64,000 bases of DNA from a virus (IMGVR_UViG_3300029305_003178:128001-192000), one strand, 5' to 3'. Positions 2,172 to 64,000 are shown, counted from the first letter of the stretch. The notes: a model not told the origin generated them from the letters alone. Numbers and translations are program-made.

Positions 2172-2183
2172 AACAACTTAGTA
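2172..2183 (+). promoter_or_regulatory. Putative late promoter AACA-N6-TA (portal)
   Basis: AACAacttagTA just upstream of the portal ORF. Confidence 0.65.
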
Positions 2184-2200
2184 AGTATAATAGTAAATTA

Positions 2201-4474
2201 TTGAAGGAAGTGATGAAATTGGCTAAGCAAAATACAAACACCAGAGGTGTTGAAAAAGAAATAATGGATTTAAATAAAACTAATGCTGATGTTATAGGTA
2301 AAATAAATCAGCAGGTTTATTATAAAGATACGGAACGACAAAAAGAATTAGAATATTTAGATTCTAAATTAGATAGAATTATCTCTAAAGAATTAAATAG
2401 CACCAAAAGTATTACATCGGATGAAATGTCTACTTTCATGGTTAAATTATTTAATGAAATGGATGATAATACTAATAAGAATATTAAATCCATTGAAGAT
2501 ATATTTAGCGGTGGCGAAAATCATTTAATGGAGTTTTTCCAGAATAGATATCAAAACTTTAATTTATTATATGAAGATCTCAAAATGGTCACACAACAGT
2601 TATCCGAATTAGAAGAAGCTGTTATGACCACTAGAGATGCTATTGTTACTACAGATGATATAAGTACTACAGTATCTAGAACTATTGAATTCTTACGGGA
2701 AAATAAAGATAATAGTGAGTATGGAACTTATATCAATACAGTAGAAGATTTAGAGGATAAACTAAAACTTCAGCAGAAATTAAAAAATATTATTATTCCA
2801 AATGTATTGACATATGGTAAATATTATACATATACAGTACCATATAAAAAACTTTTTGCTGATCATCATTATAGAAAAACTAAAGATTCTAAATATATGG
2901 ATAATTCAATTAAATCTAAAACCAAATCTTTATCAGAATCTATAAGTGATGATGCTGATTTTATTAAAGTTTTCAAAGAAGATCTTAAATCTATAGATTC
3001 TACAACAAATGTTAGTGAAAATACTATCAAGAAAACATTGACATCATATACGGAATCTATTCAAGTATCTAATGATGAAGTATCCATTCCTATATTAGAA
3101 GGATTAGATATCGATTCATTAATGGATTATGCAAAATTCAAATCATCTGTAGATAAAGCTACAAAAGATTTGAATAAAGAGATTAAAGCATCTCCAGATG
3201 GTCTTGCAGAAATGAAAGAATCTGAAAAGATGTTTGAAGATATTTCTGGTTGCTATATCAAATATATTGAACCAAAAAAATTAATTCCTATTGATTTATT
3301 AGATCATAGACTTGGCTATTATTATATGCATGATGTTGATTTTCAGGTAAATAAATCACCATTTGCAACTGCAATTACAGTATCTAATACAGCAGCAAAT
3401 CCTAAAATGCATGAAGATGTAGAAGCTATGTTTATGTCAAGAATTACAGATAAAATCGTTAAATCTTTTGATAAAAAATTCTTAGAAAATAATGCTAAGT
3501 TTAAAGATTTAATTCTTAATGCTCTTGTATATAATGATTTATATAAAAGAAATATTAGATTCCAATTTATTCCTGCAGAATATATTACAGAGTTTAAAGT
3601 TAATGAAGATGAAAATGGTGAAGGTAGATCCATTTTAATTAAATCTTTATTCTATGCTAAATTATATTTAGCATTATTAATTTTTAAAATGATCTCTATT
3701 ATTACTAGATCGAATGATACAAAAATTAACTATATTAAAAACTCTGGTATTGATTCCAATATTATTAACAGAACACAGGAAGTTGCTCGTGCCATAAAAG
3801 GACGTCAGATAAACTTCATGGATCTGTTAAACTACAACTCAATTATCTCTAAAATTGGTGCCTATAAAGAATTATTTATCCCTATGGGTAGAAATGGTGA
3901 TAGAGGTATTGAATTTGATATCTTATCTGGTCAGGATGTTCCTCTTAATACGGAATTAATGGAAATGTTAAGATCTAATATGATATCATCTACTGGTGTA
4001 CCATCTGTTATCATGAACTATGTAAATGAAGTAGATTTTGCTAAAACACTTGCAATGGCAAACTCTAAATTCGTAGGTCGTGTAATTTCTTTACAGATTG
4101 ACTGTAACGTGGGCACAACAGAATTTTATAAAAAAATTATGAAATTTTCTGATGTTAGTATACCTGATGATGTCATTGATAAATTCATATTTAAATTCAA
4201 TGCACCTAAGACATTGAATACTATGAATATGACAGATATGATCAATAATGCTGATCAGGTTGCATCTGCAGCAATTAAAGCTATTACAGGTGAAAATAGT
4301 GATCCTGATGGCGATGCAAATAAATTAAAAGATTTATTATACAATAAAATCATGAGAGATTTACTTCCTATGATGAATTGGGATTCTTTTGATAAAGCGT
4401 ATGAAGATGCTAAAATAGAATTAGCTAGATTAAAAGCGACACCTAAGAAAACAGAAGAATCTGACAGTTATTAA
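2201..4474 (+). CDS. Portal protein
   Basis: 757 aa with a T4 gp20-like C-terminal segment (LMEMLRSNMISSTGVPSVIMNY..EVDFAKTLAMANSKF); lies next to sheath/tube and has a late promoter. True start may be a few codons downstream. Confidence 0.7.
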   Translation: MKEVMKLAKQNTNTRGVEKEIMDLNKTNADVIGKINQQVYYKDTERQKELEYLDSKLDRIISKELNSTKSITSDEMSTFMVKLFNEMDDNTNKNIKSIEDIFSGGENHLMEFFQNRYQNFNLLYEDLKMVTQQLSELEEAVMTTRDAIVTTDDISTTVSRTIEFLRENKDNSEYGTYINTVEDLEDKLKLQQKLKNIIIPNVLTYGKYYTYTVPYKKLFADHHYRKTKDSKYMDNSIKSKTKSLSESISDDADFIKVFKEDLKSIDSTTNVSENTIKKTLTSYTESIQVSNDEVSIPILEGLDIDSLMDYAKFKSSVDKATKDLNKEIKASPDGLAEMKESEKMFEDISGCYIKYIEPKKLIPIDLLDHRLGYYYMHDVDFQVNKSPFATAITVSNTAANPKMHEDVEAMFMSRITDKIVKSFDKKFLENNAKFKDLILNALVYNDLYKRNIRFQFIPAEYITEFKVNEDENGEGRSILIKSLFYAKLYLALLIFKMISIITRSNDTKINYIKNSGIDSNIINRTQEVARAIKGRQINFMDLLNYNSIISKIGAYKELFIPMGRNGDRGIEFDILSGQDVPLNTELMEMLRSNMISSTGVPSVIMNYVNEVDFAKTLAMANSKFVGRVISLQIDCNVGTTEFYKKIMKFSDVSIPDDVIDKFIFKFNAPKTLNTMNMTDMINNADQVASAAIKAITGENSDPDGDANKLKDLLYNKIMRDLLPMMNWDSFDKAYEDAKIELARLKATPKKTEESDSY

Positions 4475-5408: not shown

Positions 5409-7292
5409 TTATACTCTTTTATTAATATCGATTTCGATAATACCACGTTTAGCAAGAGTTTTGAATGTAACTGCTAAATAGCAATGCAGAATACTTCTTT
5501 CTTCTTCCCAAGGATTCATATCGAAATAAACACTAAAGTCTCTGAGTTTCTTATTTCTATAATCTGCAAACATTCTGTCAGCTGCTTCACCAAACAGAAC
5601 TCTGTCTTCGGCTTCTGCGAAGTTATACAGTTTAGAAGCTACGAATTCTTCCAGCTGTCTCTTCATATCCAGCATAACAGCAACGTTGTTTTCTTCAGAC
5701 AGGTCAGACCATACAGTCTGAGATGTACCCTGACAACCTCTAACGAATGTATTTTCTGCAATACATTCAACATAGTTGAATCTGGATGTATAAATTTCTT
5801 CTTTAACTTCCAGATCATCTGCATCGATTGCAGGGATAAGGGAATTTTTAACATGGTTATCAATCATTGCATAACCTTCACCTACAAAAGGAATCTGTTC
5901 ACCAAATGTTTTGTAGTGTGTAGGTAAATTACCTGCTAACCAATATGTGATTGTAACAGGAATGATTTTACCATTGAATGGATCTCTGATTTTATAGTGC
6001 TGCATTTCTTTAGAGATGATTCTATCATCAATTTCCTGCAGGTTATATTTCATTACTCTAAACTGATTCATGTTGTAAATGAAACCAGAGTCTAAAATAC
6101 CACGAGCATCATATCTATGCAGAATTAAACCAGCCAGAGCCAGTTTAACATCTAAACTATAACCAGCGTCCATGATCAGTTCACAAGGAACTCTACGTTT
6201 ACTCTTGATGGTTCTGTCGTAAGGTTCTTCACCATTAAATGCTTTAATAAATTCTGCATCCATAGCAGCATTTCTAACTTCAGCACTAACAGTAGAAGCA
6301 AATTCACCATCATCACCGCCCATTAAAGCGATACCATCTGTAGCATCAAAAGCAATACCAGATTCAATAACTAAACCGTTATTGGGTGCTAAAGCTTTTG
6401 TCATACCAAAGATGAAGTCAAATTTAGTAAAATCAACAATTTCAGGCAGTGGTGTACCAATAGGCTGACCACTAATATCTGTAACATGTTCTTTATACAT
6501 GTTGTAGATAATTTCAAAATTGGATCTGCTGATATAAGAAGCAATTTTAGAACTGCCTGCTTCAGCATCTTCTAAAACATCATCTAAGAACAGAGATTCA
6601 CCAAGGTAGATTGCAGCTTCATAAAGTGCACCACGGAAAAACTCTTTCTTTGTCAGACCGTCTGCACTATCTAAAACTTCAAATGTGTAGTTTTTGAAAT
6701 CATTTTCAGCATCTGTTAATACATCAGATGTGATTCTAAATCTCAGTGTGTTACCATACGCACCTCTACCTTTTGCGTAGATACCCATGATGGGAACTGT
6801 TAAGTAACCTTCATCATCAACTTCATTGGGATTGATTTCAACACCATCGATAGATGCTGCAATCATATCTTTATTTGTTAAGTTAGCGAAAGGTTCACTA
6901 ACGTATTTAACTTTGAAAATATTTTTACCTTCAGCGTTTACATCTTTTTTAACTTTAGCACTAATAATAGTGTTAGCATAAGATGCAGACTGAGGCATAA
7001 TTCTCATACAATATACTTTTGCATTACCAGACTTCAGTGCAGCATAAGCATTGTACTGAGGCTGACCATACAGAGCATAGTTGGGAGTACCATATTCTTC
7101 TAAGAATGATTTTGTTTCACTATAAGGTTTAATAACTGAGTCTTCACCTTTAGGAGACGCGAATACACATAACAATCTAACGCCATTGTCAGCTGCTGTT
7201 GCAGTTGTATCTGTAAAAATGCTATTATCATTGATATATGTCTGCACGTGAGGGTGAAGCCAGTTGGGAATGATTTGTCCCTGTCTAGGCAT
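5409..7292 (-). CDS. Contractile tail sheath protein
   Basis: Sheath hallmarks: HPHVQTYINDNS N-terminus, FLEEYGTP, GRGAYGN, LMGGDDG, and C-terminal LSEENNVAVMLDMKRQLE...IIEIDINKR. Confidence 0.85.
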   Translation of the reverse strand: MPRQGQIIPNWLHPHVQTYINDNSIFTDTTATAADNGVRLLCVFASPKGEDSVIKPYSETKSFLEEYGTPNYALYGQPQYNAYAALKSGNAKVYCMRIMPQSASYANTIISAKVKKDVNAEGKNIFKVKYVSEPFANLTNKDMIAASIDGVEINPNEVDDEGYLTVPIMGIYAKGRGAYGNTLRFRITSDVLTDAENDFKNYTFEVLDSADGLTKKEFFRGALYEAAIYLGESLFLDDVLEDAEAGSSKIASYISRSNFEIIYNMYKEHVTDISGQPIGTPLPEIVDFTKFDFIFGMTKALAPNNGLVIESGIAFDATDGIALMGGDDGEFASTVSAEVRNAAMDAEFIKAFNGEEPYDRTIKSKRRVPCELIMDAGYSLDVKLALAGLILHRYDARGILDSGFIYNMNQFRVMKYNLQEIDDRIISKEMQHYKIRDPFNGKIIPVTITYWLAGNLPTHYKTFGEQIPFVGEGYAMIDNHVKNSLIPAIDADDLEVKEEIYTSRFNYVECIAENTFVRGCQGTSQTVWSDLSEENNVAVMLDMKRQLEEFVASKLYNFAEAEDRVLFGEAADRMFADYRNKKLRDFSVYFDMNPWEEERSILHCYLAVTFKTLAKRGIIEIDINKRV

Positions 7293-7317: not shown

Positions 7318-7329
7318 TATAAAATTGTT
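7318..7329 (-). promoter_or_regulatory. Putative late promoter AACA-N6-TA (sheath-tube operon)
   Basis: Minus strand reads AACAattttaTA, 26 nt upstream of the start. Confidence 0.65.
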
Positions 7330-7349: not shown

Positions 7350-8099
7350 TTACATCTTGATTATCTTTTCTATAGGAGAATCAACCTGTTTTTTATTATA
7401 ATTTTTCATATTAAGTGATGCTGTTATCATTGCATCCATGTCTCTATAGGTGATGGCAGCAAATGTTGAGTTTCTCGCACATACTTCAGTAATATTAGCT
7501 GGAGTATATGCATATCTAGAAATATTCGGATTCTTTGCAACACTTTTAGAGAATTTATCACCATCTGGACCACGATTCATTTCTGCTAGAACGAATTCTA
7601 ATACTACAGGAGGTACATTTAAACTCAGACCATTAATATCCAAATTATTTAACCATACTGTAAGAAGATCATCATATGATACAGATTTAATAATTTTTTT
7701 ACTTAATACCATATTCAGAAAGTTAGATACGTTGCCAGCATTCTGTGAAATGTTTGATACCATTATTTTGTCACCTTTATAAAATTGAGCGACTTTATAT
7801 CGTTGTACTTCATCATACTGATTACCAAGCATATTAATATCTTTAGTTACAATATTAGATGGGAATAATGTAATATTAGTAGGAAGATTTAATACTTCAT
7901 CTACCAACATTTTTTCTTTTTCATCAAATACTCTAACATTTAATAGACCAATAGTATCAATATGTGTACCTATAAGTTGGGATAAATTAATTTCAAAATA
8001 ACTTTCTGGAATATATATTTCTATAAGATATGTATTGGATACGATATAACCTTTATCCTCTTTAATAAAAGATGATAACTTACCCATAACTATTTTCAC
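7350..8099 (-). CDS. Probable RNA polymerase beta-prime C-terminal fragment (virion RNAP subunit)
   Basis: VLEFVLAEMNR / NSTFAAITYRDMDAMITASL / SPIEKII parallel the beta-prime C-terminal motifs HIEVIVRQM / [20 protein letters not shown] / GLKENVI. Late promoter AACAtactgaTA at 8144-8155. Confidence 0.6.
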   Translation of the reverse strand: MKIVMGKLSSFIKEDKGYIVSNTYLIEIYIPESYFEINLSQLIGTHIDTIGLLNVRVFDEKEKMLVDEVLNLPTNITLFPSNIVTKDINMLGNQYDEVQRYKVAQFYKGDKIMVSNISQNAGNVSNFLNMVLSKKIIKSVSYDDLLTVWLNNLDINGLSLNVPPVVLEFVLAEMNRGPDGDKFSKSVAKNPNISRYAYTPANITEVCARNSTFAAITYRDMDAMITASLNMKNYNKKQVDSPIEKIIKM

Positions 8100-8179
8100 C
8101 CCCTTGAGACGGATAAAAACTGATAAAGGCAGAATTCTACCTTTATCAGTATGTTTTTGTTATTCATTTTGCATTGATA

Positions 8180-9109
8180 TTATCTTTCAATCATTGCTAC
8201 TACTTCTTTAATATTATTGATGAATTTTTCTTTTTTCTCGTTATTCATTTTACCATAGCACAGATCTTTTAAGTTAACCATGAACTGAGAAATGAATACA
8301 CCCTGAGTTTTATCATGCTCATCCTGTTTCATATCTGCCACAAAGGAGATGAAAATTACTGCAAAAATATTAGGTCTTTTTGTATATTCTTCAGGGAGGA
8401 AAGCTTTTTCAATATTACCATATTTAAGAATATTTTCACTAATACCAAAGTATTTAATATTCTTTTCATACTTATTAAATACTTTTCTAGTTTTAGCTTC
8501 AATACCATAAATAGAGTAAATAGATCTACGTTTAACCTCATTAGATAAATATTTTTTAATATTATCCAGTGAGAAAGCATTATCAACCTCAGTCATAATT
8601 TTTCTAATTTTAGTTTTTTCTTCTTCATCTTCAGATGTTTCCAATCTTTCAGTCAATCTATTCATAATTACATCTGACATAGTATCGAATTCGTTTGTGA
8701 GTTTTTCGAATTCCTCTCTACTTTCAGCAAGATCTTCATTAAGTTTTCTAGTTTCTTCGTCAATATATGCAAAAGTATCAATAGCTCTTTTTCTAAATAA
8801 TAAGAAGTCTCGTTTAATATCAATATCTCTATCTATTTCTCTATTAACAAGTTTAACTTCTTCATCACCAATACTAAAGATAGCATCAATATCATCATCA
8901 GACAAAGCTTTAATTTCATCTTCTGTCATGGAATTTAATTTAGCATCAATAGCGTCAGTAGCTTCTTCATCACCAAGCATAGCTCTAGACTGAGCTTTGA
9001 TCATTTCTTTTGCTTTAATACCCTCATCAAATTTATTTTTGATATTAATAAATTTAATCGCTTCTCTATCACTATCTGTCAAAATATCAAAATTTTTAAT
9101 TGGTTCCAT
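8180..9109 (-). CDS. Hypothetical protein (helical, acidic)
   Basis: 309-aa ORF coupled to the upstream gene; GAGGGAG RBS. Confidence 0.7.
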   Translation of the reverse strand: MEPIKNFDILTDSDREAIKFINIKNKFDEGIKAKEMIKAQSRAMLGDEEATDAIDAKLNSMTEDEIKALSDDDIDAIFSIGDEEVKLVNREIDRDIDIKRDFLLFRKRAIDTFAYIDEETRKLNEDLAESREEFEKLTNEFDTMSDVIMNRLTERLETSEDEEEKTKIRKIMTEVDNAFSLDNIKKYLSNEVKRRSIYSIYGIEAKTRKVFNKYEKNIKYFGISENILKYGNIEKAFLPEEYTKRPNIFAVIFISFVADMKQDEHDKTQGVFISQFMVNLKDLCYGKMNNEKKEKFINNIKEVVAMIER

Positions 9110-9882
9110 TATTCATCTTCTCCCTCTAATAAATTTTTATTAATATATTTTTGTCTTATTTTAATGAAAATATCATCAATTACGTAATCATATTCATCGG
9201 TACATAGATCAATATAAGTACGGACAAAATCACCATTTAGGATATCTTCATTAATAAGATCTTTTACAACACTAGCATTATAATTATTTTTACCAGCACT
9301 TAACTCGATAAATTCTTCATTTTCCATCTCTAATGATATTATATAATTAATGATAGATGATAAATTAGAAATAATAGTTAAATCATCTGGATTTTTAAAT
9401 TGTTTTTTATATACAAGAGTGGATACATCTTTCTTGTTTTTATCAGCATAATAATTAGTAAATTCTTTCTTATGTGTATTGATATACTTACTAATATATT
9501 TAGTAATATTTTTAGTATATCTTAAAATAAAATACTCGTATAAAGCTTGACCAATATCTACAATATCAGATCTATTTGCAATAGATGTCAAATCTAAATC
9601 CAGATTAAATCTATCGCTTAATTTAGATAAAATATTAATGAAGAAATCGTTCATCGCATTATCAATACCTTCTATGATTTCTTCATTATCTCCATATATA
9701 TCTCTAAATTCATCAGCTTTTTCTGTAATTGAATCGATATAATCCACATTAGTAGACAGTGGGTTATTAATCTGCTCATAAATACTTTCTCTTAATAAAT
9801 CAAATGGTAGCTCTGCTACTAAATTATCCAATTCAACAGATGTAATTGGTTCATATTCTTCTCTATTGTAAAAATGTCCCAA
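9109..9882 (-). CDS. Hypothetical late protein
   Basis: 257 aa; TTG start with AAGGA RBS; AACAtctaagTA at 9917-9928. Confidence 0.7.
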   Translation of the reverse strand: MGHFYNREEYEPITSVELDNLVAELPFDLLRESIYEQINNPLSTNVDYIDSITEKADEFRDIYGDNEEIIEGIDNAMNDFFINILSKLSDRFNLDLDLTSIANRSDIVDIGQALYEYFILRYTKNITKYISKYINTHKKEFTNYYADKNKKDVSTLVYKKQFKNPDDLTIISNLSSIINYIISLEMENEEFIELSAGKNNYNASVVKDLINEDILNGDFVRTYIDLCTDEYDYVIDDIFIKIRQKYINKNLLEGEDE

Positions 9883-9961
9883 TTAAGAACACCATCCTTT
9901 CATAGTATAATTAAATTACTTAGATGTTAGTATACAAATATAAATGTACTAAAATAGTATG

Positions 9962-9997
9962 ATCCGTATTTTGAGAATTTTCGATTATATATTATTA
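9962..9997 (+). promoter_or_regulatory. Putative early phage promoter driving a small-gene operon
   Basis: Exact copy of 1956-1991; TATATATTAT at 9986-9995. Confidence 0.75.
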
Positions 9998-10084: not shown

Positions 10085-10348
10085 ATGACAATGATGGTAG
10101 TAGAAGAAAGAAGAAATAGAAGAGGGAATCTTACATTCCGGAGATACTCCAATGGATATGAGGAATATTGGAAGTATACAACGGAAGGATTCCTCAAATC
10201 TCACACAGACAATCGTGGATATGAAATGAAATATCCTGATTGTGATGTGATGGATCCCTGGGATAAGGATGTTAAAGAAGACGTCTTATCTAGGGAATAT
10301 GAAAACGATCTCGATGCTAAATACGGCATCATTAGAGATTTTAACTAA
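10085..10348 (+). CDS. Early hypothetical protein with short beta-hairpin (YD-like) repeats
   Basis: AAGGAGGA RBS before ATG 10085; RGNLTFRRYSNGYEEYWKY..G pattern. Confidence 0.7.
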   Translation: MTMMVVEERRNRRGNLTFRRYSNGYEEYWKYTTEGFLKSHTDNRGYEMKYPDCDVMDPWDKDVKEDVLSREYENDLDAKYGIIRDFN

Positions 10349-10370
10349 TTTTTAAAAGGAGGTAATTAAT

Positions 10371-10586
10371 ATGTCACGAGCATACAATTATAACGTAAGA
10401 GAATTCCGGAGAATTCTCATCGATAATGGCTATGAGTTTAAACGACAAACTGGTAGCCATCAAATCTGGGTGCGTCCAGATGAACATGGGAATGATATGG
10501 ATGTAATCAACATTCCCGCAACAAGCATTAACGCAATGCTTGCAAGACGTGTTATTAAAGAGCACAAATTATATGTTTATAAATAA
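10371..10586 (+). CDS. hicA: HicA-family mRNA interferase-like protein
   Basis: 71 aa, REFRRILIDNGYEFKRQTGSHQIW...INIP; carries the HicA GSH motif; strong RBS. Confidence 0.8.
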   Translation: MSRAYNYNVREFRRILIDNGYEFKRQTGSHQIWVRPDEHGNDMDVINIPATSINAMLARRVIKEHKLYVYK

Positions 10587-10615
10587 TTTTTACATACATT
10601 AAGGAGGTAACTAAA

Positions 10616-10984: not shown

Positions 10985-10985
10985 T

Positions 10986-11264: not shown

Positions 11265-11277
11265 GGAGGATTTAGTT

Positions 11278-11427: not shown

Positions 11428-11440
11428 GGAGGATATAACT

Positions 11441-23024: not shown

Positions 23025-23062
23025 TAGAATTGCCTCCTTTATTAGTTATTATCTTAATGTTT

Positions 23063-52700: not shown

Positions 52701-55700
52701 AGTAACTGCATTCTTAATACTATCTATTTTACCAACTACAGCATTTTTAATTTTCTGAGTTAATGGAACTCTTGTTGCGGCAGTTACACCTTCATCAGCT
52801 ACACTAACTGCAGATTGTCTAGCTTCACTAAGTATCTGTCTATCAGCTTTAAATCTAGTGAAAGCTTTATATTTATCACCAGCAATTCTAGCAGCATTTG
52901 TGACACCAGCAACGCCAGTTGCCTCCATAGCATCATAGTTTACTGATGTTGTGCCAGTTGCATCAGTTCTATCACCATCGTCGTCTTTAAGACCAAAAAT
53001 TTCTTTAATCTTACCAGACATCATATTTACAAGATTAGTAACAGCATCTCCAACTACCACACTTATATTAGTTATAGGATCTTTAAAGAATTTAAGTAAG
53101 AATGGAATAGCTAAAATGAGACCAGTTGTAATTAAACCTTTCTTACCAAAGATAGAAGCCCAGTTAAATTTATGCTCTTTACCATCATCCCTGATATCTT
53201 TAACGAAATTCTTCATTGTATTAAAGAATCCTGTACGTTCTTTTCTATCAGCTAACTCTGATGATATCTGTCTGTTATTAGCTAAATTCTGACTTCTTGC
53301 TTTAGCAATACTTTCAGCCATTTGCTGTTCTTTCTTAGCTTTAGCTTCTTCTTTTTTCTTTTTCTCAGCTTCTTCTTTATCATCATTTGTATCAAATACT
53401 TCTTGACCTTTAGTAACAGCTTTAGCTAATGTATCTACAGGAGCTTCAAGATCAGAAGAAATATCTTTCTTAGAATCAGATCTAACCAACTCTATTAATT
53501 TATCGAGTCTCTGATGTATACCATCATCATGTGTAAAAATAGAGCCTTTTTCACTACCAAGATCAGCTAAAGTTTTAACAGATTTTCTTGTTTCTTCAGC
53601 TATTTCCACATCATTTTCTAACATTGCTGTCACATCTGATGTTTTTTGAGATATAGTATCGAGATTTTCATGATTGTCTCTATCCATCTTAACTCTACTT
53701 TTTTCTATAGAATCTGCATTTGTATATGCTTTACCATATTCATTTTTAAGAGCTTTTTCTTCTTCTTTTCGTTTAGCTCTTTCCAATTTTCTCTGTTCTT
53801 TAGAACTTAATTCTGATGTAACATCTTTATTATATTTATTTTTCTTAGCTTCTGCTTGTTTATTTCTAAGATTTTCTTCATCTTGATCAAGGAATGCATT
53901 TCTAACATCACTACGATATTCCGAATCTGATATAAGTTTATTCTTTTTATCGAGCATTTCTTTAGCATATCCTGCACCTTCAGGTGAATACTGCATGCTT
54001 CGTCTAGTTGCACCAGGTAAGTAAGATGCAGCAAGCATTTTAAGAAGTTCACCACTAGATTCATACTCACCGTCTCTTATTCTATCAAGAATATTTTCAT
54101 CGGCACCTTTTCTAGCAGCTCTATCTCTTAAAGAACCTCTAGCCATACCCATTAACTGGAATGGTAATGCGATTGCTTTAAATGGTGTTGTTATTGCAGC
54201 TGATACCATTTTAAGTGTTAATTTACCAAAGCCCATCATTGCTTTACCAAGCAATCCAAATGTACCTTGAATCAGTTTCTTAGTAAACCCAAATAAATCA
54301 GATACGCCATTTCTAATAAATGTGAATGCTGGTTTAACTACACCTTGTACAATAGGATTATCGACTAATCTTCGCTTAATTTCATCTTTAATTAATCCTC
54401 TATAATGTGTCAAACCTTCTTTAATATGTCTTTGATATAATCTTTCAGAAACAGAAGATAATATTTTTACAGGGAATTCAAGTACTTTACCAAATACACT
54501 AGCAGTTTTTTCTATCATGAACTTACTAACAGATTTGAATAAAGGAATTGGATTAAGTTTTTTAACAAAATCTTTTAATACTTGCAAACCTGGAAGATTA
54601 GCAATAGTATCTTTAACAGTTTCACCAAGCTCTTTAAGTCTAATACCTATTCTAGAAAATTCTTCTTTAATAGGTACCATTGCAATACTAAATGGTGTAG
54701 CAATTTTCTCATCAAACCAGTTCTGTATATTGGTAGTCCATTTAGACATAGTAAATTTAAATGGTTCTAAAACTTCCATTTGTAAATAGTTGCCAAATCT
54801 ACCAAATATACCACCATCTTTAGTCACATTACCATTAGCATCAAACTCAGCTTTACCGAATAAGAAATCTTTCCATTTATCCGATGTTAATAAAATACCA
54901 GTTGCAGCACCAGTGATTGCAAGAGCCATTGGATTAATAGCTAAGCTACCTAATAAACCAAATGAACCCAATCCTTTACCGAGAATCATACCACCAATGC
55001 CACCAACAGCACCAGCACCAAATTTAAGTTTATGGGCTGTCATGAATGATTTACCAAGTTCTGCACCTGCTTTAACTATACCTGCATTACCAACAGTTTC
55101 TTTAGCACCAAAGAGCATATTTTTAAATGACTCTGATCTAAGAAGTAATGCTGTAGCAATACCTGTTAATGCACCTGTGATTGGTCCACCTAAAATAAAT
55201 GAAGGTAAAATACCAAAGCCTAAACCACCAGAAATAGCACCAATAGTACCACCACCGATAATATTAACTTTGTTAGCTGCCAAGAAGTCTTGTGCACCTT
55301 TACTAATAAATCCACCTATTCTAGCATTAGTTTTAGCATCCATTGGACCAAATAACCAATCTTTGAATCTTTCAGACTGTGATAAGAAACCACCTGTGAT
55401 ACCCAATACTGCACCAGACATAGGGCCTAAGAACATGGAACCTAAAATACCAAATCCACCAGCACTAGCTAGTAAACCAGCACCACCAGCAAGTAAACCT
55501 ACTGCCAATGCTTTAGGTAATGCGTTCTTAACTTTTTCAGTAAAGTCACCGACATTAAACGCAGATACTTTTTCTCCAGCTTTATCTTTCATACCAAATA
55601 TAGCATCTAACCATACTTGGCCACCTTCATATAAAGTATCTTTAATATTTCCTAAAAATCCTTTACCTTTATCTTTAAGACCTTCTTTATCATTAGTGCC

Positions 55701-58361
55701 GAAAATATATTCTGCCATAGTATCTTTAAAACTTATAAGATGTTTTTTAAAGATACCAAAAACACTATTTTCTTTATCACCCTTAATTTCATTACCATCT
55801 TTATCTTTAAAATCTTTACCAGTGAAGTAACTTATAAAACGATTACCCATTTCTTTCATATTATTAAATACGTCGGAGAATAAGCCACCTTCTCTATAAC
55901 CTCCCTCACCTTCACCTTTTTTACCAAAAGTAAAATCGAATCCTTTACCAAAGATTTCTTTAAATTTTTCCCATTGTTTACTATTCTGAATTTTAGTAAT
56001 CAGGCCCTCTTCACCAAAGAGTTTTTCATCAGCTTTAGTTAAGAAAGAATCTAATTTGCCTCTAATCCAATCCATACCATCACCGAATTTATCACCAATG
56101 AACTCAAATATGGATTTAGGATCTTTATCAGTTCTAGTTTTACTAGGGAAAATAATATTAAATAAACCTTCATCAAGCTTATCAATAAATTTTTCAGCTA
56201 TTTTTGCAGGAGCTTGTAACAGTCCATGAATATGTTGAAAAATGCTTTTTTTCTCAATAACATCTTTTTTAGAATTAATAAATCCTTCCACAGACTTATC
56301 ATCTGTTGGAGTAAAGTTTATTGTTTTCTTCTCATATTCAGCGATTCTTTCACGAAGTTCATCTTCATCCATATTATAAAGATCATCAAGACTTTCAACA
56401 GATGTAATACCTCGTTCTTCGTTAGTTTTTTTAGCAAGTTCACGATCTTTTTTAAGTTGCTCCTGCCAATCTCTATATTTCTTTTTCTCATCATCTGTCA
56501 TATCTGCATACTCTTTTGTTTTCCATGTATCTAATGACGATGATAAAGAATATCCAGAACTAGATCTATCTTTATAAAGTTCATTATGAACCATAGATCC
56601 ATCATTATTAATTTGAGCATCTCTAAAGAAATCTGTTCTAGCCTCTCTAGCCTCAAATTTATCTCTACCAAACAGATTCATCAGTTCATTACGTTTTAAT
56701 AAACTTAAAGTAGTTCTAAATAACTTCTGTTCATCATCTGTCAAGTCATCGAATACTTCAGCAAGAGAGTTTTTAGTATCAGGATCATCTGGATCAAAAT
56801 CTCTAGGATTTATAAACATATCAGAATTAGTATATCTTAAAAATCCCTTTCTGATTTTATCCTTTAATGGATCTAATGCATTATCATTACCTTCAACCTT
56901 ACCAAAATTCAGTAAATCAAATACTTTATCTAATCCTTCATAAGACGATAAAATAGTTCTTTTACGATCTTCTTCAAATCTTTCTGTTAATGCATCTACT
57001 GTAGTAAATACGCCACGATTATAATCAAATGTTAATCGTTCAGTATCACCATTTAAAGCACTTAAGATTTTACTTAAATAACCAGGAATTACTTCAACGA
57101 TAGATTTTCTTGTTATACCGTCAAAATCAACTTTCCCTCTTTCGAAATCTGCCGTATTTACCATGGTTTTAATCTCTTGATTATACCCAAAGATTTCACC
57201 AAGAGTTTGTAATAAAATATTTGAACTTCCTTTAAGTCCATCAACCTTACCAAGCAATGCAGGGAAGAATGCACCTAAAGTTTTATCAAATGCTCCTGCA
57301 GTACTACGCAAATTTTTAGGAAGAATTGATGACATCAACATTCTCGGAATAAATGCTAATGGATTAGCAGCCAGCTGCTCAAAACCACCACTTTCCTTAA
57401 ACATGCTTAAACTACTTAACAGGAAGTTATTACTTGTCCATCGTTTAGTATTTCGTCGTACCATATCGGCGTAACCCTTAATATTAATAGCACCTGTGCT
57501 ATAATCATAAGGATCATCGTACATTGGTCCATCATCAATATCTTCTTTTTCAGCATTAAATTTACGTAATTCTTCTAATACATCACGTTTTAAAGTTAAT
57601 GCTTCTTCATAATATGCTAATGATGCAGAAGTAAACTTAGAAATAGTATCACCATTGAATTCAAGTAATCTACCTAAGTTTTCATTAATTACACCTAAAT
57701 GCTCACCAATACCATAAATCATTTTCTGATTTATAGCCAATGACGCACCATGTAATTTAATATCTCTATTAGCAGTATCTTTTGCTATATTAACCATTAA
57801 GTCAGTCTGTGAAGAAACAGCTCTGACCATTGGATTATCACCATTAATATTACTAGATAAACTAATTTTTGGAGTAACACTTACATTAACTTCAGGTCTT
57901 TCAGAATCATCATCATAACCAGAAGATTCGATATCTTCATCAATATCAAAATCATCCATAGACCAATTATCGTCATTATCAAGGTCATCCATATTAAAAT
58001 CGTCCATACCCATGCTTTTAGCCATAATAGCATCAGCACGTTCTTTATTATAAAATTTACCTGATTTTAGGTCTTCTTTAATATTAGCTTTTGCTGCAGA
58101 TCCATAGATCAGATAGTCATCTATACTATCACCGACCATTTTACGTAAAACTGCATTCATATTTCTTTGTTTAGAAACTGCTTTAATATCAGCTATAGTT
58201 TCTTTAACATAAGATGCATTACTTTTAAAAGTATCTGTTGTTGCAGGCATTACGTCATGCATAACATCGGCTGCTGCATATCCTAGTGACTTAGCCACAT
58301 TAGCAAACCATCTATTATCAGATAATGTTTTTTTATTAACCTTTGATGGAGTCTTAGCCAT
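49740..58361 (-). CDS. Tape measure protein with C-terminal M23 peptidase and phage tail lysozyme domains
   Basis: 2873 aa, helical with Gly-rich hydrophobic blocks; M23 HEGVD..YAHM..STGSHLHY; lysozyme GYSKEATAGIMGNLYAESG..GIAQW..FERAG; late motif at 58390-58401. Confidence 0.85.
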   Translation of the reverse strand: MAKTPSKVNKKTLSDNRWFANVAKSLGYAAADVMHDVMPATTDTFKSNASYVKETIADIKAVSKQRNMNAVLRKMVGDSIDDYLIYGSAAKANIKEDLKSGKFYNKERADAIMAKSMGMDDFNMDDLDNDDNWSMDDFDIDEDIESSGYDDDSERPEVNVSVTPKISLSSNINGDNPMVRAVSSQTDLMVNIAKDTANRDIKLHGASLAINQKMIYGIGEHLGVINENLGRLLEFNGDTISKFTSASLAYYEEALTLKRDVLEELRKFNAEKEDIDDGPMYDDPYDYSTGAINIKGYADMVRRNTKRWTSNNFLLSSLSMFKESGGFEQLAANPLAFIPRMLMSSILPKNLRSTAGAFDKTLGAFFPALLGKVDGLKGSSNILLQTLGEIFGYNQEIKTMVNTADFERGKVDFDGITRKSIVEVIPGYLSKILSALNGDTERLTFDYNRGVFTTVDALTERFEEDRKRTILSSYEGLDKVFDLLNFGKVEGNDNALDPLKDKIRKGFLRYTNSDMFINPRDFDPDDPDTKNSLAEVFDDLTDDEQKLFRTTLSLLKRNELMNLFGRDKFEAREARTDFFRDAQINNDGSMVHNELYKDRSSSGYSLSSSLDTWKTKEYADMTDDEKKKYRDWQEQLKKDRELAKKTNEERGITSVESLDDLYNMDEDELRERIAEYEKKTINFTPTDDKSVEGFINSKKDVIEKKSIFQHIHGLLQAPAKIAEKFIDKLDEGLFNIIFPSKTRTDKDPKSIFEFIGDKFGDGMDWIRGKLDSFLTKADEKLFGEEGLITKIQNSKQWEKFKEIFGKGFDFTFGKKGEGEGGYREGGLFSDVFNNMKEMGNRFISYFTGKDFKDKDGNEIKGDKENSVFGIFKKHLISFKDTMAEYIFGTNDKEGLKDKGKGFLGNIKDTLYEGGQVWLDAIFGMKDKAGEKVSAFNVGDFTEKVKNALPKALAVGLLAGGAGLLASAGGFGILGSMFLGPMSGAVLGITGGFLSQSERFKDWLFGPMDAKTNARIGGFISKGAQDFLAANKVNIIGGGTIGAISGGLGFGILPSFILGGPITGALTGIATALLLRSESFKNMLFGAKETVGNAGIVKAGAELGKSFMTAHKLKFGAGAVGGIGGMILGKGLGSFGLLGSLAINPMALAITGAATGILLTSDKWKDFLFGKAEFDANGNVTKDGGIFGRFGNYLQMEVLEPFKFTMSKWTTNIQNWFDEKIATPFSIAMVPIKEEFSRIGIRLKELGETVKDTIANLPGLQVLKDFVKKLNPIPLFKSVSKFMIEKTASVFGKVLEFPVKILSSVSERLYQRHIKEGLTHYRGLIKDEIKRRLVDNPIVQGVVKPAFTFIRNGVSDLFGFTKKLIQGTFGLLGKAMMGFGKLTLKMVSAAITTPFKAIALPFQLMGMARGSLRDRAARKGADENILDRIRDGEYESSGELLKMLAASYLPGATRRSMQYSPEGAGYAKEMLDKKNKLISDSEYRSDVRNAFLDQDEENLRNKQAEAKKNKYNKDVTSELSSKEQRKLERAKRKEEEKALKNEYGKAYTNADSIEKSRVKMDRDNHENLDTISQKTSDVTAMLENDVEIAEETRKSVKTLADLGSEKGSIFTHDDGIHQRLDKLIELVRSDSKKDISSDLEAPVDTLAKAVTKGQEVFDTNDDKEEAEKKKKEEAKAKKEQQMAESIAKARSQNLANNRQISSELADRKERTGFFNTMKNFVKDIRDDGKEHKFNWASIFGKKGLITTGLILAIPFLLKFFKDPITNISVVVGDAVTNLVNMMSGKIKEIFGLKDDDGDRTDATGTTSVNYDAMEATGVAGVTNAARIAGDKYKAFTRFKADRQILSEARQSAVSVADEGVTAATRVPLTQKIKNAVVGKIDSIKNAVTGTAGAKETTITKFINAAKSVMKSIEKYLSKYIKGKHLSTLKSIVSKILSIMNPVKLAKFSGKIAATSAKFLMIYGDIAFMAYGVATGITKSEAANLFEVSQEDVTMKMRAVSAIVKGITSSSWGSLVALINEITKSLIGFDFIKTIAELLYSGLADEDDPSISVAQQKFNSKYQDDVMVQVAASGTDEDRATFARVREKQAQLKADPSLKDNAEFMNELNTDISSLTSQSNYSKDAFNDMQNKGFFGKVVDGASKAKKWLFGGKGDEEKLAQAKSTKAMLEQMLVEDESLRNDPGFMDVLRRADDSITQNTETTSVVGRALGSVGKWFSDITGTAGDFITNAFKSLDDKFVEIQTKWETFKTNVEKKIADFWDPIVDLFTGIGEKFNGGVEKIGDSFSGFIDGAKKTGSKVWNWVTSKFNFGGREDISLDDFDSEYNKFAKKHQGGAVLSQYQNYRKHLTSDFGFRNDPFTGKPSGHEGVDMARGLGSRIAAFVPGTVIAANHIDPATNDAPSGKGRGYGNNVIVKDKYGKLHLYAHMNSIDVKEGDTVELGDTIGREGSTGRSTGSHLHYSVMGSKYGNYVDPNKYIEGFDSGNPDLALAENTDDEFATVNPSTGVDTGMSTVIDVMSSTLNNVLAQAGLAAPTTADATSISADGVSTAINTNLPDGETPDKVWQFFTQNGYSKEATAGIMGNLYAESGMNPAAIQHGSGHAAGIAQWESYKNKAGRWLNMSNYAKKKGKDWTDLGSQLEFIHNELGSLDYYFKNDIKYGGNIAGSTLTNAGAVPTTYAEWKRSTDVDMATRQFEGAFERAGKPHMDRRLEAARGYYQKYSKTGTIYDNDSRKASHNQGGLDGQMVKVGSRIPDSKFVMTAPKDLFKDKFANNGIGGIGDVIETVAATAKTSGTDTTVVDNIVKIVTLLTEIATNTRNTTDNTAKIASKENAPTAVVANTNNVSSNPMFDIAKQRREEQTKSKYAIAKAVAQGIH

Positions 58362-58488
58362 ATCGATTAACTCCTTTCTTCAATAGTATTAAAGTAATGT
58401 TTTCATTAACCAATTTCAATGGATTTACTAAAAAGACAAAAAAAAAGACGTATAGGAAATTAATCCTATACGTCTAAAAATAATTCAA

Positions 58489-59140: not shown

Positions 59141-59410
59141 TTAGATAGAAATTGTGAATCCCATTGGTGCAGGAATCGTTGTTCCTGGAATGACTTTAAT
59201 AACATCTTCCTGATTACCAGAACCAATGATTTCAGTTGCATCAACATAATTATCATCGAAAAATGTTTCAAATGCATCAGAAGTTTCTTTCTTCTTGGAT
59301 TCTTTCTTTTTCATTTTCTTCTCATACTTTTCAATTTTCTTATCGATATGCTTAAATACTTTATCGATATTAAAATTATTTGGGTTAATATCCATATTAC
59401 TCACCTCCAA
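59141..59410 (-). CDS. Small hypothetical protein (start probably ATG 59395)
   Basis: GGAGGTGA RBS at ~59401-59408. Confidence 0.65.
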   Translation of the reverse strand: MEVSNMDINPNNFNIDKVFKHIDKKIEKYEKKMKKKESKKKETSDAFETFFDDNYVDATEIIGSGNQEDVIKVIPGTTIPAPMGFTISI

Positions 59411-59496: not shown

Positions 59497-59521
59497 AATT
59501 CATCATAATAATATATATTTA

Positions 59522-62500
59522 TTATTCGTTATAAATTTCTTCTAAATGACGTTTTAATTCAATAAGAACTTTATTTGCAAACATCGTATAGATGATTGAT
59601 GGAGTCATACGAGCTAATACGGCATTTGGACTTAGGAATGCAGATACTTCTTCATTTGGTCTATATTCGGAATAGGGCTCATAACCTTCTGGAACTACTT
59701 CACCAATGATAGATTTTAAGGCACTAAAGAAAGTTATTTTGTCACCTACAGTAAGGACATCTCGATATTTAATATAGAATTCGATTAATACACCATCAAA
59801 TAACTCTCTACCTTTAATCTTACCATTTGTACCTGGTTCTAATTTCTTAGTACTTTCTGTAATCATCATACCTGCTTTAACAATACTATCTGTTTTATCA
59901 TATTTATTAAGCAGATTCTTTTTCTTATTGATTTTGCCATAATATTGTGTTACTAATCTTCTAAGACTAGGAGATAGTTCATCTAATTCAACTGAAGTAT
60001 AGATTTTAATATCTTCAATAACACCAGCATATTTAGTTTTAATAGGATATTTACCTAAAGACTTAATCTCATCAATAGCTAAATCATCACCAATGTCTGC
60101 TAAGAATTTATTGTATACATCATTATCAAATGATGTTTCATATTCAATGAGGACATCGTCAACTTTAACAACATCACCAATATTTACCATATTAGAGATA
60201 TTAGCATTTTTACCTATAACAACATCTTTCATCATAATAATATCAGATGCCATTTCCTCAGACATTTTCTTAGTAACATATGTAGAGTCTTCATATGTAA
60301 TATAAGAAGACATGATAGCAATTTTCTGCATAGAACCGATGTTAAAACGATTACCATGAAGAGTTTCATTACTAAAGAATTTATTTTCATATGCTACAAT
60401 ATCATTAGCTTTTACCTTATCTCCAACCTTTAAATCACATTGTAATTGATTGGATAAATAAAAACCTGAGTCAGAGTTTTTAACAATTCTTGGTTTAATG
60501 TCAATTGCTTTATGGGTACCATCATTATAAGCAATAACAGCAATACCAACATCTTCATTTATTTCTACAATTTTACCATCCTTTTCAGCTCTTACAATAA
60601 AGTCATCGGACAGATATTGTTGGATTACCTGCTCAGCACCATTGGAAATAAGTACTGGAGAAGATTTTGCAACTGGAACTGTGTGCTTTGACTGCTTCGC
60701 TGCCATTGCTGTACGTGATGAGTCATCGTGTGTAATACCCATAGTAGTCAGAAGCTCGGAAGGAGAAAATAAATTAACATCGGACAGTTCATTGATTTTA
60801 TCATCATTAATATCAATAAAACCTCTCGCATTTTTAACATTAGGTTCCATTGTAAGGAATCTAGAAACACCTACATTACCATCAGGTGATGTATTGATTG
60901 CTAAGATACCGGCCATAGTTTTATCATAAGTTCTCTTATCGAGAGTATATGCTTCAGACACGTTTAAACCATTATAGCCCTTATAGGTAATAGCTCTCGT
61001 CTTTTCCAATTCATATATTGGATTTAATGTAGAAATTGATTCTACTGTCTGTAAAGCCATTAATTCTTTAATAACAGCATTTCTAGGCATAGAAATTTTA
61101 ATTGGATTTTTATTATATGCTGTTGCTTTGTATTTACCATAAGCATTAGCTAATTCTTTATAGAACAGAGCATTTACAACTTCATTCGATCTAATTCTAT
61201 AAAGATTCATATTGTTTTCTCTAATATATTTATTATCACCGAGCAATACATTTGCACATAATACAACACTAACGAAATCAGTAGGATAGTCTAATTCTTC
61301 TAATACTTCTTTAGTAATTGGATCTATCATAAAATCGTAGAATGTATCAAATGCGTTTGCTAAGTTTCTAGCACTATATAAAATATCAAATAATTCCACA
61401 TATGTATTTTTATCATCGAAGTCAGCATAATTATAAGATTTTGTGGGTAAATATAATAATGCATTTAATAATAAAGAATTTTCAATGGGATATCTATCGA
61501 ATACGAGATAACCATCAGCAAATTCAACATATGTTTCATTATCGGATACTTTTGGTCTAGTATCTGAGAAATAATGTCTAACATTACCTTTTTTCAATAC
61601 AGTAGATAAGCCCTCACAATAACCAACTAACAGGACTATAGGAACCTTCTTACCCATTACTGTTGCTCTACTATACATAAATTTCTTTGTAGTAACATCA
61701 GTTTCTTCATAAGTTTTCTGGAAAGATGGATCCATAATAGATACAATATAATCAATCATATCCAATTCACCAATCTTTTCAGTTTTTTTATCTAATAAAA
61801 TAGGTTTTTCACCTTTAAGAAAACCTATACAAATTTTATCATCTGGAATCTTAGTTGATCCTAATCTATCATGGATATCTTTCTGGTTAAAAATAATTTC
61901 GTTACCATTAGATTTAATACTATTGATAGATTGAGAAATATCATCATATTCTAAAGTTGTATTATAATTGAAGTTGATCTCGGATGCATCACCCATCAGT
62001 ACTTTAACTTTAGGATTAGTCGCAGATAAAGCTTTTTTAAATCTCTCTGCTTTAGGAGTTAATTTTGCACCAATTCTATAAATAAAGATTTTATTATAGT
62101 TAGTACAAATCTGAACTTCATCTGGACCAGTTTTACAAATTGGTTTCATAAACAGCTGTTTATTAATAATTTTTCTATTACCATCAATATATAAGAATTT
62201 ATCATCAACGAACTTAGGAATATCTACAACTACTGTATGTCTAACTCTATTAGCATCTTCGAGTTTAATTGTATATGTATCCATATAATTCAATTCATCA
62301 GAACTATCTTTAATATCGATATCTAATACATAAACTGGAATAGATTTATCATTTAAAGCCGTGATAGAGTTGACGAAGTCCTGCTTCATTAATTTGTCAT
62401 TATATTCTTTCTCAAACTTATTAAATCTAATTTTTGTAGCATTAGGATTAGTGGTAGTTACCTTAGATGAAATGTCTGTAACTGGAAGTGGTTTACTATT

Positions 62501-63649
62501 ATCCATCTTCTTAATATCACCTAAAGTTTTACCTTCTAATTTAATCTTTTGCTGTTTTTTCTTTAGCTCTTCATCACGTTTAAGAGATGCTGTTGTCTTA
62601 CCAGTAGATTTAACTTGTTGAATATTGTATATATCTGATAATAACTCATTATCAACTTCAATCTCATCATCATCGATATCCAATTCTTTCTTAAGTTCTT
62701 CTTTCTCATTTTTAAGAACTTCAGTTTTATCTATATTCTTCTCAGCTATTTTACTAGCAATTTTCTCTTCTTTTGGTACTTCTTTTAATGTATCTGGTGT
62801 TATAGCTATAACATCATTTTCATCAGATTTTTTATTTTTTTCATCTGATTTTGTACCAGTAAAATTATACTCTGGAGCAATAGTTGTGACTATTTTATCC
62901 TTTAACTCAGATTTAGTTAATTCTTTTTCAAAAGTTTCTTCATCATCTAAATTAATATGTTTGAGTATAGTATTTAGTCTCTGCTTAAAAATAGGAAAAT
63001 CTTTTTCTTCACATTTAGATGGATTGAATCTAAATATGCTATCTGTTGTATATAAAAAGATTTCTTTATCCCCAAGCTTTTTAAATGTATCAAAATATTT
63101 TTTATATGCTGTAAAAATATAAATAATTGGATTATCAATTTTATTAAACTTCATCCAACTATCAATATTAATAAAAATAAATTTATTATTATATGATGAT
63201 ACAATCTGATTAGACATGATTTTATTAAAATAATTAATATACTCTTCAATCTTTCTTTTCATTGAAGGTACCTTAATATATTTAAAGAAAATCTGATTAT
63301 ATACAGAAATATCATAATATAAATTCTTATGATTAATTACATCAAATCTCATAGGAGTCTGTAATCCATATTTTGTTGAAATCTGTTTATATAATACTTT
63401 TCTACTATCTTTATAATCAAGTCTAACTTGCTTATTTACAATCTTTTCAAAGTATTTTGCATCAATATAATAATTTCTATAATATCTTCTAGGGTTTATT
63501 AATTTATTTCCGATAAGTAATGAAATATCCTTAGTATCATTATTATTTAAGATAATAAGATTATCTTTATTACTATCATCGGAGGCATCAGGCATCCATA
63601 CACCTAATTTATATACCTTCAAATAAGGTATTTCGTTAATATATAACAT
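59522..63649 (-). CDS. Multisubunit RNA polymerase beta-like subunit (probably virion RNAP; lacks the beta C-terminus)
   Basis: FLYIDGNRKIINKQL, TSPDGNVG, DDSSRTAMAAKQSKHTVPV, TYEDS, VGDKIT..LKSIIG, VLARMT; late motif at 63678-63689. Confidence 0.9.
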   Translation of the reverse strand: MLYINEIPYLKVYKLGVWMPDASDDSNKDNLIILNNNDTKDISLLIGNKLINPRRYYRNYYIDAKYFEKIVNKQVRLDYKDSRKVLYKQISTKYGLQTPMRFDVINHKNLYYDISVYNQIFFKYIKVPSMKRKIEEYINYFNKIMSNQIVSSYNNKFIFINIDSWMKFNKIDNPIIYIFTAYKKYFDTFKKLGDKEIFLYTTDSIFRFNPSKCEEKDFPIFKQRLNTILKHINLDDEETFEKELTKSELKDKIVTTIAPEYNFTGTKSDEKNKKSDENDVIAITPDTLKEVPKEEKIASKIAEKNIDKTEVLKNEKEELKKELDIDDDEIEVDNELLSDIYNIQQVKSTGKTTASLKRDEELKKKQQKIKLEGKTLGDIKKMDNSKPLPVTDISSKVTTTNPNATKIRFNKFEKEYNDKLMKQDFVNSITALNDKSIPVYVLDIDIKDSSDELNYMDTYTIKLEDANRVRHTVVVDIPKFVDDKFLYIDGNRKIINKQLFMKPICKTGPDEVQICTNYNKIFIYRIGAKLTPKAERFKKALSATNPKVKVLMGDASEINFNYNTTLEYDDISQSINSIKSNGNEIIFNQKDIHDRLGSTKIPDDKICIGFLKGEKPILLDKKTEKIGELDMIDYIVSIMDPSFQKTYEETDVTTKKFMYSRATVMGKKVPIVLLVGYCEGLSTVLKKGNVRHYFSDTRPKVSDNETYVEFADGYLVFDRYPIENSLLLNALLYLPTKSYNYADFDDKNTYVELFDILYSARNLANAFDTFYDFMIDPITKEVLEELDYPTDFVSVVLCANVLLGDNKYIRENNMNLYRIRSNEVVNALFYKELANAYGKYKATAYNKNPIKISMPRNAVIKELMALQTVESISTLNPIYELEKTRAITYKGYNGLNVSEAYTLDKRTYDKTMAGILAINTSPDGNVGVSRFLTMEPNVKNARGFIDINDDKINELSDVNLFSPSELLTTMGITHDDSSRTAMAAKQSKHTVPVAKSSPVLISNGAEQVIQQYLSDDFIVRAEKDGKIVEINEDVGIAVIAYNDGTHKAIDIKPRIVKNSDSGFYLSNQLQCDLKVGDKVKANDIVAYENKFFSNETLHGNRFNIGSMQKIAIMSSYITYEDSTYVTKKMSEEMASDIIMMKDVVIGKNANISNMVNIGDVVKVDDVLIEYETSFDNDVYNKFLADIGDDLAIDEIKSLGKYPIKTKYAGVIEDIKIYTSVELDELSPSLRRLVTQYYGKINKKKNLLNKYDKTDSIVKAGMMITESTKKLEPGTNGKIKGRELFDGVLIEFYIKYRDVLTVGDKITFFSALKSIIGEVVPEGYEPYSEYRPNEEVSAFLSPNAVLARMTPSIIYTMFANKVLIELKRHLEEIYNE

Positions 63650-64000
63650 TATTTTACCCCCTTCTTTGATTTTGTATTAACTAAATGTTTTTCACATAGG
63701 AATCGACATAAAAATACAAAGACGAACCCCAAGTACACTCTTCATGTAATAGAATGCACTTGGGGAACTGTATATAAAACTAGAATTCTAGCATTTTAAA
63801 TTTTAAGTACTTATAACTAATAAATGCAAAGCATTATTGAACTCCTGCGGAACCATTTAACCGATTTAGCCGACCGGCGAGGCTAACTTTCGTTATCCAG
63901 TATTATGATAGAAATTCCTCATCTTAGTAAATTTTGTAGTTTACCGAATCGGAACATAGTAAATTTCAGTAATAAAAAATATAGAGCCTTGTCTTGCAAG

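Follow-up and report, generated by a model that had tools for sequence, protein, structure and literature searches.

What does a late promoter motif reveal about the polymerase that reads it, and about the bases of the DNA in which it lies? This question is raised by a stretch of 64,000 nucleotides (nt) of viral DNA, bases 128001-192000 of contig IMGVR_UViG_3300029305_003178 (hereafter the window), in which the short motif AACA-N6-TA recurs just upstream of genes. A preliminary description of the window took the motif for the late promoter of a non-virion RNA polymerase (nvRNAP) like that of Bacillus phage AR9, and suggested that the phage may carry deoxyuridine (dU) in place of deoxythymidine (dT). 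The two halves of that proposal fare differently here. The motif is very probably the late promoter of an AR9-like nvRNAP, while the DNA, judged from the genes that the phage encodes, is probably ordinary thymine DNA rather than dU-substituted.

The source contig, from an uncultured gut phage, is 227,229 bp long, with 29% GC and a CheckV completeness of 92%. Within the window lies the core set of structural genes of a jumbo myovirus (portal, sheath, large terminase, and major capsid), together with a 2873-aa tape-measure-like gene and a 1375-aa RNA polymerase (RNAP) beta-like gene. A megablast search with 12 kb of the window found no DNA-level relatives among phage records. Relatives are detectable at the protein level only, the nearest being AR9/PBS1, vB_BpuM-BpSp, the Staphylococcus S6 group, Listeria LPJP1, and Yersinia phiR1-37, with identities of 23%–27% for the capsid and 32%–36% for the RNAP beta subunit. 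Genes are our own heuristic open reading frame (ORF) calls, 49 in the window, and AR9 homologs were found by tblastn, with every predicted protein as query and the full AR9 genome as subject. Coordinates refer to the window unless preceded by "genome."

A positioned late motif

All 18 copies listed in the preliminary description are exact matches to AACA-N6-TA on the strand given there, and all except the copy at 41042, which opens into a non-coding stretch, are followed by a ribosome-binding site and a start codon. The motif is not enriched overall: its 62 copies in the window (both strands) are fewer than the shuffle mean of 87, so the signal is positional, as the preliminary description had cautioned. 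Indeed, 18 of the 62 copies fall within the 5.5 kb of intergenic DNA. Motif density is 2.9 per kb between genes and 0.74 per kb in coding DNA. A sense copy lies 28–75 nt upstream of 16 of the 49 called genes (17 with a corrected start at 9882); the expectation from 1000 shuffles is 2.0 ± 1.4 (maximum 8), and there are no antisense copies in this zone. Genome-wide, 41 genes have a copy 28–60 nt upstream, compared with 6.3 ± 2.4 in shuffles (maximum 14) and one gene in the antisense control. The expected positional enrichment is therefore present, and it is specific to both strand and spacer: N6 gives the 41 sites, whereas other spacers within N3–N9 give 8–22. The motif search was an exhaustive count of gapped words of four plus two letters, with shuffles. 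Altering any fixed letter of AACA-N6-TA collapses the signal, except where the result is a pure A/T word, and AACA-N6-TA is the only word containing C or G among the top N6 words of the genome. As a positive control, the same script was applied to AR9, where it found 60 sites at N6 and 3–27 at other spacers; the positional test thus recovers AR9's experimentally defined late promoters.

AR9 late promoters have the published consensus AACA-(6N)-TA/G, in which transcription starts at the last base (PMC5312081), and the motif found here equals it. Aligned sites extend the match, with A before AACA in 66% and A after TA in 88%, making the local consensus AACA-N6-TAA. This last A distinguishes the phage from AR9, in which it occurs at 35% of sites, and is found in all five related metagenomic phages in which it was examined (G003-G007; 83%–94% of sites).

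The statement that the motif precedes "nearly every structural transcription unit" was mildly overstated. Of the late-type units in the window, about two-thirds carry an exact copy and about one-third do not. Eight genes with an upstream gap of at least 50 nt have no exact copy, and four of these directly follow a hairpin and T run. In AR9, 24 of 118 late start sites depart from the consensus (PMC5312081).

Two polymerases and two promoter classes

In AR9, the late motif is read by a five-subunit nvRNAP, whose sigma-like subunit gp226 recognizes 3'-UUGU-5' on the template strand (PMC9209446). The contig encodes the complete set. Homologs of the four core subunits (AR9 gp089, gp105, gp154, and gp270) lie at genome 81738-83984, 88102-89748, 96398-98416, and 220407-221861, and the promoter specificity subunit that the preliminary description proposed to look for lies at genome 105413-106894. 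By sequence, the only PDB match of the latter is AR9 gp226 (7S01_A, E 3e-20); for the beta-N homolog the match is 7S00_c (E 1e-66). An AlphaFold (AF2) model of the gp226 homolog (pLDDT 79.5) likewise has 7S01_A as its best structural match in the PDB (E 7e-18), followed by phiKZ gp68. The phiKZ nvRNAP resembles this system in its split beta and beta' subunits and its sigma-like fifth subunit, but its late promoter is a different sequence, TATG, it reads thymine-containing double-stranded DNA, and the sequence similarity is far weaker. All subunits of a virion RNAP are encoded as well, as homologs of AR9 gp078, gp145, gp189, and gp264.

The virion RNAP of AR9 reads early promoters of the form AAATATATATTAT-N6-G. 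The core TATATATTAT and the G six bases on are common to both phages, and the same early core has been reported for Staphylococcus phage MarsHill (bioRxiv 10.1101/2020.12.14.422802). Of the 52 copies of TATATATTAT in the genome, 36 are in intergenic DNA with a gene starting less than 150 nt downstream, and 28 of these 36 have G at position N6+1. With this core, this G, and the encoded virion RNAP subunits, the early promoter is of the AR9 type. As in AR9, the genes downstream of it are replication, nvRNAP, and small early genes. Differences from AR9 are the flank, tttt(c/t)aa(a/t) rather than AAA, and a T before the G (TGA) in most copies.

The two motifs divide the genes by class. For homologs of virion proteins and virion RNAP subunits, the nearest upstream promoter is late in 20 of 22 cases and early in none; homologs of replication and nvRNAP genes have early promoters in nine cases, both in three, and late in three. 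The nvRNAP beta-C and gp226 homologs stand behind early promoters and the virion RNAP genes behind late ones, the same placement as in AR9. The preliminary assignment to an AR9-like nvRNAP is upheld by the consensus, the complete polymerase, the early promoter, and the gene split taken together. Protein identities to AR9 across the late-promoter system are only 24%–38%. The system is AR9's two-polymerase, two-promoter program, differing in the A at +2, a non-conserved Val206 in gp226, and a gene set for dTTP synthesis.

One virion RNAP gene has an unusual structure. The beta'-C gene (AR9 gp264 homolog; genome 217910-220240, + strand) is in two pieces of 278 and 88 aa, and the ORF between them resembles the AR9 HNH homing endonuclease gp271, an arrangement suggestive of an intron or a split gene.

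Uracil or thymine?

Does the AR9-like promoter also mean AR9-like DNA? The preliminary description named genes by which dU DNA might be recognized: a uracil-DNA glycosylase (UDG) inhibitor and a dCTP or dCMP deaminase should be present, and dUTPase and ThyA absent. Both of the enzymes expected to be absent are encoded. A dUTPase (genome 195428-195973) reaches 153 bits where the NCBIfam equivalog cut-off is 103, and none of the five motifs of trimeric dUTPases is missing, the motif-3 Asp and the glycine-rich motif 5 included; its score as a dCTP deaminase is 38 bits, below the cut-off of 93. The next gene encodes a thymidylate-kinase-family (Tmk-like) protein, and the one after it the anaerobic ribonucleotide reductase NrdD (genome 197407-200004, + strand), where AR9 has NrdEF instead. 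NrdD fits an anaerobic, low-GC host with GGAGG-type ribosome-binding sites. A ThyA (genome 202971-203813) scores 184 bits against the TIGR03284 cut-off of 108. Its best PDB match is to the thymidylate synthase chains 1B02/1BKO (E 2e-70, nearly full-length alignment), its catalytic Cys is kept, and its C-terminus is PVAI, the end of E. coli ThyA that closes the active site. Because AR9-homologous genes flank them and the phage's own promoters surround them, these genes are not an assembly chimera.

Searches of the genome found no PF00383 match and no homolog of the AR9 dCMP deaminase gp221, no homolog of AR9 Ugi (the one inhibitor used as query among inhibitor families), no homolog of the AR9 deoxyribonucleotidase gp151 or of NrdE, and no match for ThyX or UDG. 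No base-modification enzymes were found among 20 proteins scanned against Pfam, ten of them from the early region. The Pfam searches that found ThyA and dUTPase in this phage give no match for either in the five relatives of known or presumed dU DNA (AR9, BpSp, LPJP1, S6, and phiR1-37). Where AR9 has dCMP deaminase, Ugi, and NrdEF, this phage has dUTPase, ThyA, Tmk, and NrdD. Destroying dUTP and making dTMP is the opposite of the PBS2/AR9 strategy, and with these four genes encoded, thymine DNA is most likely. The suggestion that dU replaces dT is thus not borne out, given this gene set, its absence from the dU relatives, and the loss of Val206 described below.

A second, dUTPase-like ORF of 117 aa lies just before the window (genome 123429-123782, − strand), after the DNA polymerase and RNase H genes. 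It is degenerate, having lost the catalytic motifs and motif 5, and a similar copy occurs in the related metagenomic genome G006.

Variation at the residue next to the −10 base

In the AR9 enzyme, Val206 of gp226 lies 3.9 Å from C5 of the −10 uracil, a V206G enzyme accepts thymine, and the residue is reported to be absolutely conserved in gp226 homologs of dU phages (PMC9209446). Two independent alignments place Thr (Thr226 of the homolog) at this position in the phage described here, with Ile207 and Trp208 conserved. In the AlphaFold model the Thr lies in a short helix (225-232) that lines up with AR9 helix 2.1bis (205-214) in the alignments. In the beta-N subunit, Tyr362 is replaced by Asn in this phage only, among the phages compared. 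Two further AR9 promoter contacts in beta-N, Lys375 and Asn382, were considered as markers and rejected as uninformative because they vary among dU phages themselves (Asn and Gly in S6).

Related loci in IMG/VR were found with an alignment of gp226 homologs from this clade only, since the broad gp226 alignment had no block conserved enough. Position 206 is Val in seven isolates and, in 11 IMG/VR relatives, L, L, L, Q, T, V, V, P, P, A, and G. This variety indicates that the Val206 constraint of the dU isolates is absent in the metagenomic clade. Six large relatives keep the N6-specific enrichment of the motif, with 14–36 sites except in one of them, the GC-rich G002 (44% GC, Ala206), which has seven. 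G002, with this weak enrichment and none of the nucleotide genes, was set aside as uninformative.

Does the residue follow the nucleotide genes? Relative G007, with Gly at 206, encodes ThyA and a dUTPase with the full set of motifs, whereas G005, with Val, has a dCTP-deaminase-like gene and neither dUTPase nor ThyA. A dUTPase-family gene that keeps the glycine-rich motif 5 occurs in one of seven Val genomes and four of five non-Val genomes, a count that is suggestive, the sample being small and not phylogenetically independent. On balance, and by a narrow margin over even odds, we favor the view that template-strand recognition of the AR9 kind exists in nature in a thymine-reading form, in this phage and among its gut and metagenomic relatives, that residue 206 tracks nucleotide metabolism across the group, and that the lineage has switched between uracil and thymine genomes while retaining the same promoter code. 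On this account, Val would go with a lack of dUTPase and ThyA or with a dCTP-deaminase-like gene, and Thr, Gly, Leu, or Pro would go with dUTPase and sometimes ThyA; the Gly case would match the laboratory V206G mutant that accepts thymine. G005 is a candidate for a genuine uracil-DNA member of the metagenomic group. Its deaminase-like gene (L077, G005:C1:68143-68703) has a GWVDPGFKG motif and adjoins the gp226 homolog.

A proposed program and its rivals

How might transcription proceed in such a phage? The packaged, multisubunit virion RNAP, whose beta subunit is encoded at 59522-63649, would transcribe early genes from TATATATTAT-N6-G promoters. Early products would include the split beta and beta' subunits of the second, non-virion RNAP and the sigma-like gp226 homolog. 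The nvRNAP holoenzyme would then bind AACA at −11 to −8 and TA at −1/+1, reading the element on the template strand as in AR9, and would start at the A of TA, ~17–50 nt before the start codon. In thymine DNA, the enzyme would read 3'-TTGT-5' where that of AR9 reads 3'-UUGU-5'. The late output would comprise capsid, portal, sheath, tape-measure, virion RNAP, and other late genes. This combination of an AR9-type program with thymine DNA is the best explanation of the whole, and one that we hold with reasonable confidence. Several points nevertheless weigh against it. Base composition itself cannot be read from sequence, and the start sites and the timing are taken over from AR9. ThyA-family enzymes also include pyrimidine hydroxymethylases. 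The AR9 enzyme no longer recognizes a promoter with T at −10 (PMC9209446). Because Thr and Val are isosteric, tolerance of thymine does not follow from the substitution alone, and this phage conserves beta-N Arg363, the residue that in AR9 stacks on the −10 U. The degenerate dUTPase-like ORF could in principle interfere with the dUTPase.

What other explanations deserve weight? The genome might be dU-substituted after all, as in AR9 and PBS1, with an nvRNAP that needs template-strand deoxyuridines at −11 and −10. The shared core consensus, the conserved Ile207, Trp208, and Arg363, the similar shape of Thr and Val, and the fact that all cultured relatives are known or presumed dU phages speak for this, and the inactive dUTPase paralog might act as a dUTPase poison. 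We nonetheless regard it as improbable, because an apparently active dUTPase, ThyA, and a Tmk-like kinase sit inside the phage's own gene blocks, the first two being absent from the five dU relatives; because dCMP deaminase, a Ugi homolog, and a gp151-type nucleotidase were not found; and because the Val described as "absolutely conserved" has been lost in this phage and is freely variable across the clade. The same enzymes can be given other roles if another base (5-hydroxymethyl-dU, for example, or a derivative) replaces thymine. The dUTPase would then supply dUMP, the ThyA-family enzyme would act as a dUMP hydroxymethylase, and the Tmk-like protein would be its kinase. SPO1-type phages do need this trio of dUTPase, ThyA-family enzyme, and deoxynucleoside monophosphate kinase, and pyrimidine hydroxymethylases are distant members of PF00303. 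This alternative seems somewhat less probable still, since the enzyme passes the thymidylate synthase equivalog cut-off, matches thymidylate synthase structures over nearly its full length, and ends in PVAI like E. coli ThyA, while an annotated "pyrimidine hmase" is only ~27% identical to it, and the Pfam scan of 20 proteins revealed no other modification enzymes.

A different kind of objection concerns the motif rather than the DNA. The phage is uncultured and known from sequence alone, so AACA-N6-TA might be some other upstream signal, such as an RNA processing site or a leader element read by host machinery. We consider this very unlikely. Promoters mapped by experiment in AR9 have the identical sequence, the phage encodes both the cognate polymerase and its specificity subunit, the motif often stands at the head of a transcription unit that follows a strand switch, and it partitions by gene class.

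Promoters and genes in the window

The late promoters of the window lie on both strands. On the + strand, AACAACTTAGTA at 2172-2183 lies 41 nt before the portal gene (2213-4474, AR9 gp128 homolog), the copy at 27719-27730 precedes 27766-29634 (homolog of the AR9 minor virion protein gp214) and 29656-30654 (gp215 homolog), and that at 30707-30718 lies 72 nt before 30779-31828. The remaining gene-associated copies are on the − strand. Those with AR9-homologous virion genes downstream are at 7318-7329, before the tail sheath gene (5409-7292, gp126 homolog); at 8144-8155, overlapping a second copy at 8150-8161, before a virion protein gene (7350-8099, gp125 homolog); at 17320-17331, before the major capsid protein gene (15339-17291, gp117 homolog); at 27275-27286, before 25793-27235 (homolog of virion protein gp213) and 23063-25774 (gp212 homolog); at 49662-49673, before 48160-49641 (homolog of virion protein gp205); and at 58390-58401, before the tape-measure-like gene (49740-58361, gp204 homolog). 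The copy at 63678-63689 precedes the virion RNAP beta-like subunit gene (59522-63649, − strand, gp189 homolog), which makes this a late gene whose product should read the early promoters. Other copies on this strand are at 9917-9928, before 9109-9882 and 8180-9109; 21016-21027, before 18830-21007 (725 aa); 23050-23061, before 21096-23024 (642 aa); 35445-35456, before 34171-35436 (gp218 homolog); 40984-40995, before 39331-40953 (540 aa); and 45641-45652, before an endonuclease-domain gene (43715-45610, gp233 homolog, 47% identity). The copy at 38381-38392 precedes 37738-38349, a gene with promoters of both classes, its early one (38480-38489, − strand) lying 140 nt before it.

The late promoter at 41042-41053 (+ strand) points into a non-coding stretch of ~230 nt, 41053-41285, which is a candidate late non-coding RNA. 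This stretch has no ORF, contains ACACCUCC, and ends in a 12-bp hairpin and T run; its predicted fold has an energy of −57.8 kcal/mol (z = −5.3 against shuffles). It has no Rfam or tRNA match, and tRNA and Rfam scans of the whole window were empty.

Early cores are scattered among the late genes. On the + strand, an early core with G at N6+1 lies at 1980-1989, and early promoters precede a cluster of small genes at 10085-11671 (promoter at 9986-9995), 41356-42588 (41295-41304), 45804-46378 (45682-45691), and 46556-47079 (46444-46453); on the − strand, one at 59508-59517 precedes 59141-59410. Two + strand copies have no such gene. The early promoter at 27316-27325 is followed by 450 nt without a + strand ORF, and the core at 35511-35520 is antisense to late genes, with no + strand gene for more than 5 kb. 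These two may give rise to early non-coding or antisense RNAs across late genes. Minus-strand ORFs called at 27439-27723 and 35506-35799 have no ribosome-binding site and may not be genes.

Some genes are of separate interest. The large terminase gene (11717-13915, − strand) is one unbroken ORF, whereas that of AR9 is annotated as a join of five pieces; it lacks an exact late motif, and the closest copy is the one upstream of the capsid gene. The two proteins best conserved with AR9 are the endonuclease at 43715-45610 and a homolog of gp174, annotated as an AAA/P-loop ATPase (genome 19779-20870, + strand). The N-terminal 157 aa of the latter are 46% identical to gp174 and are fused to ~200 extra residues; the product has no Pfam or NCBIfam match.

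Implications

What are the implications of an AR9-type promoter in a phage that encodes dTTP synthesis? To our knowledge, no polymerase other than the nvRNAP of AR9 (AR9/PBS1) is known to recognize promoters on the template strand. The need of this enzyme for deoxyuridine has been described both as part of the mechanism and as a means of ignoring host DNA. In the searchable literature, gp226 orthologs are described only from phages with demonstrated or presumed uracil DNA (PMC9209446; for the AR9 system, see also PMC5312081 and PMC5449584), and a 2026 review mentions AR9-like phages only with uracil or modified DNA. A member with thymine DNA would therefore be new. If the reading given here is true, it would follow that the promoter code can be separated from uracil, since this relative makes dTTP and yet retains promoter, polymerase, and sigma-like subunit, and the natural variants at position 206 (Thr, Gly, Ala, Pro, Leu, and Gln) would provide material for studying how uracil and thymine are discriminated. 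Such a relative also cautions against deducing uracil DNA from AACA-N6-TA alone. The two promoter motifs may also be useful in their own right, for the temporal annotation of uncultured AR9-like jumbo phages.

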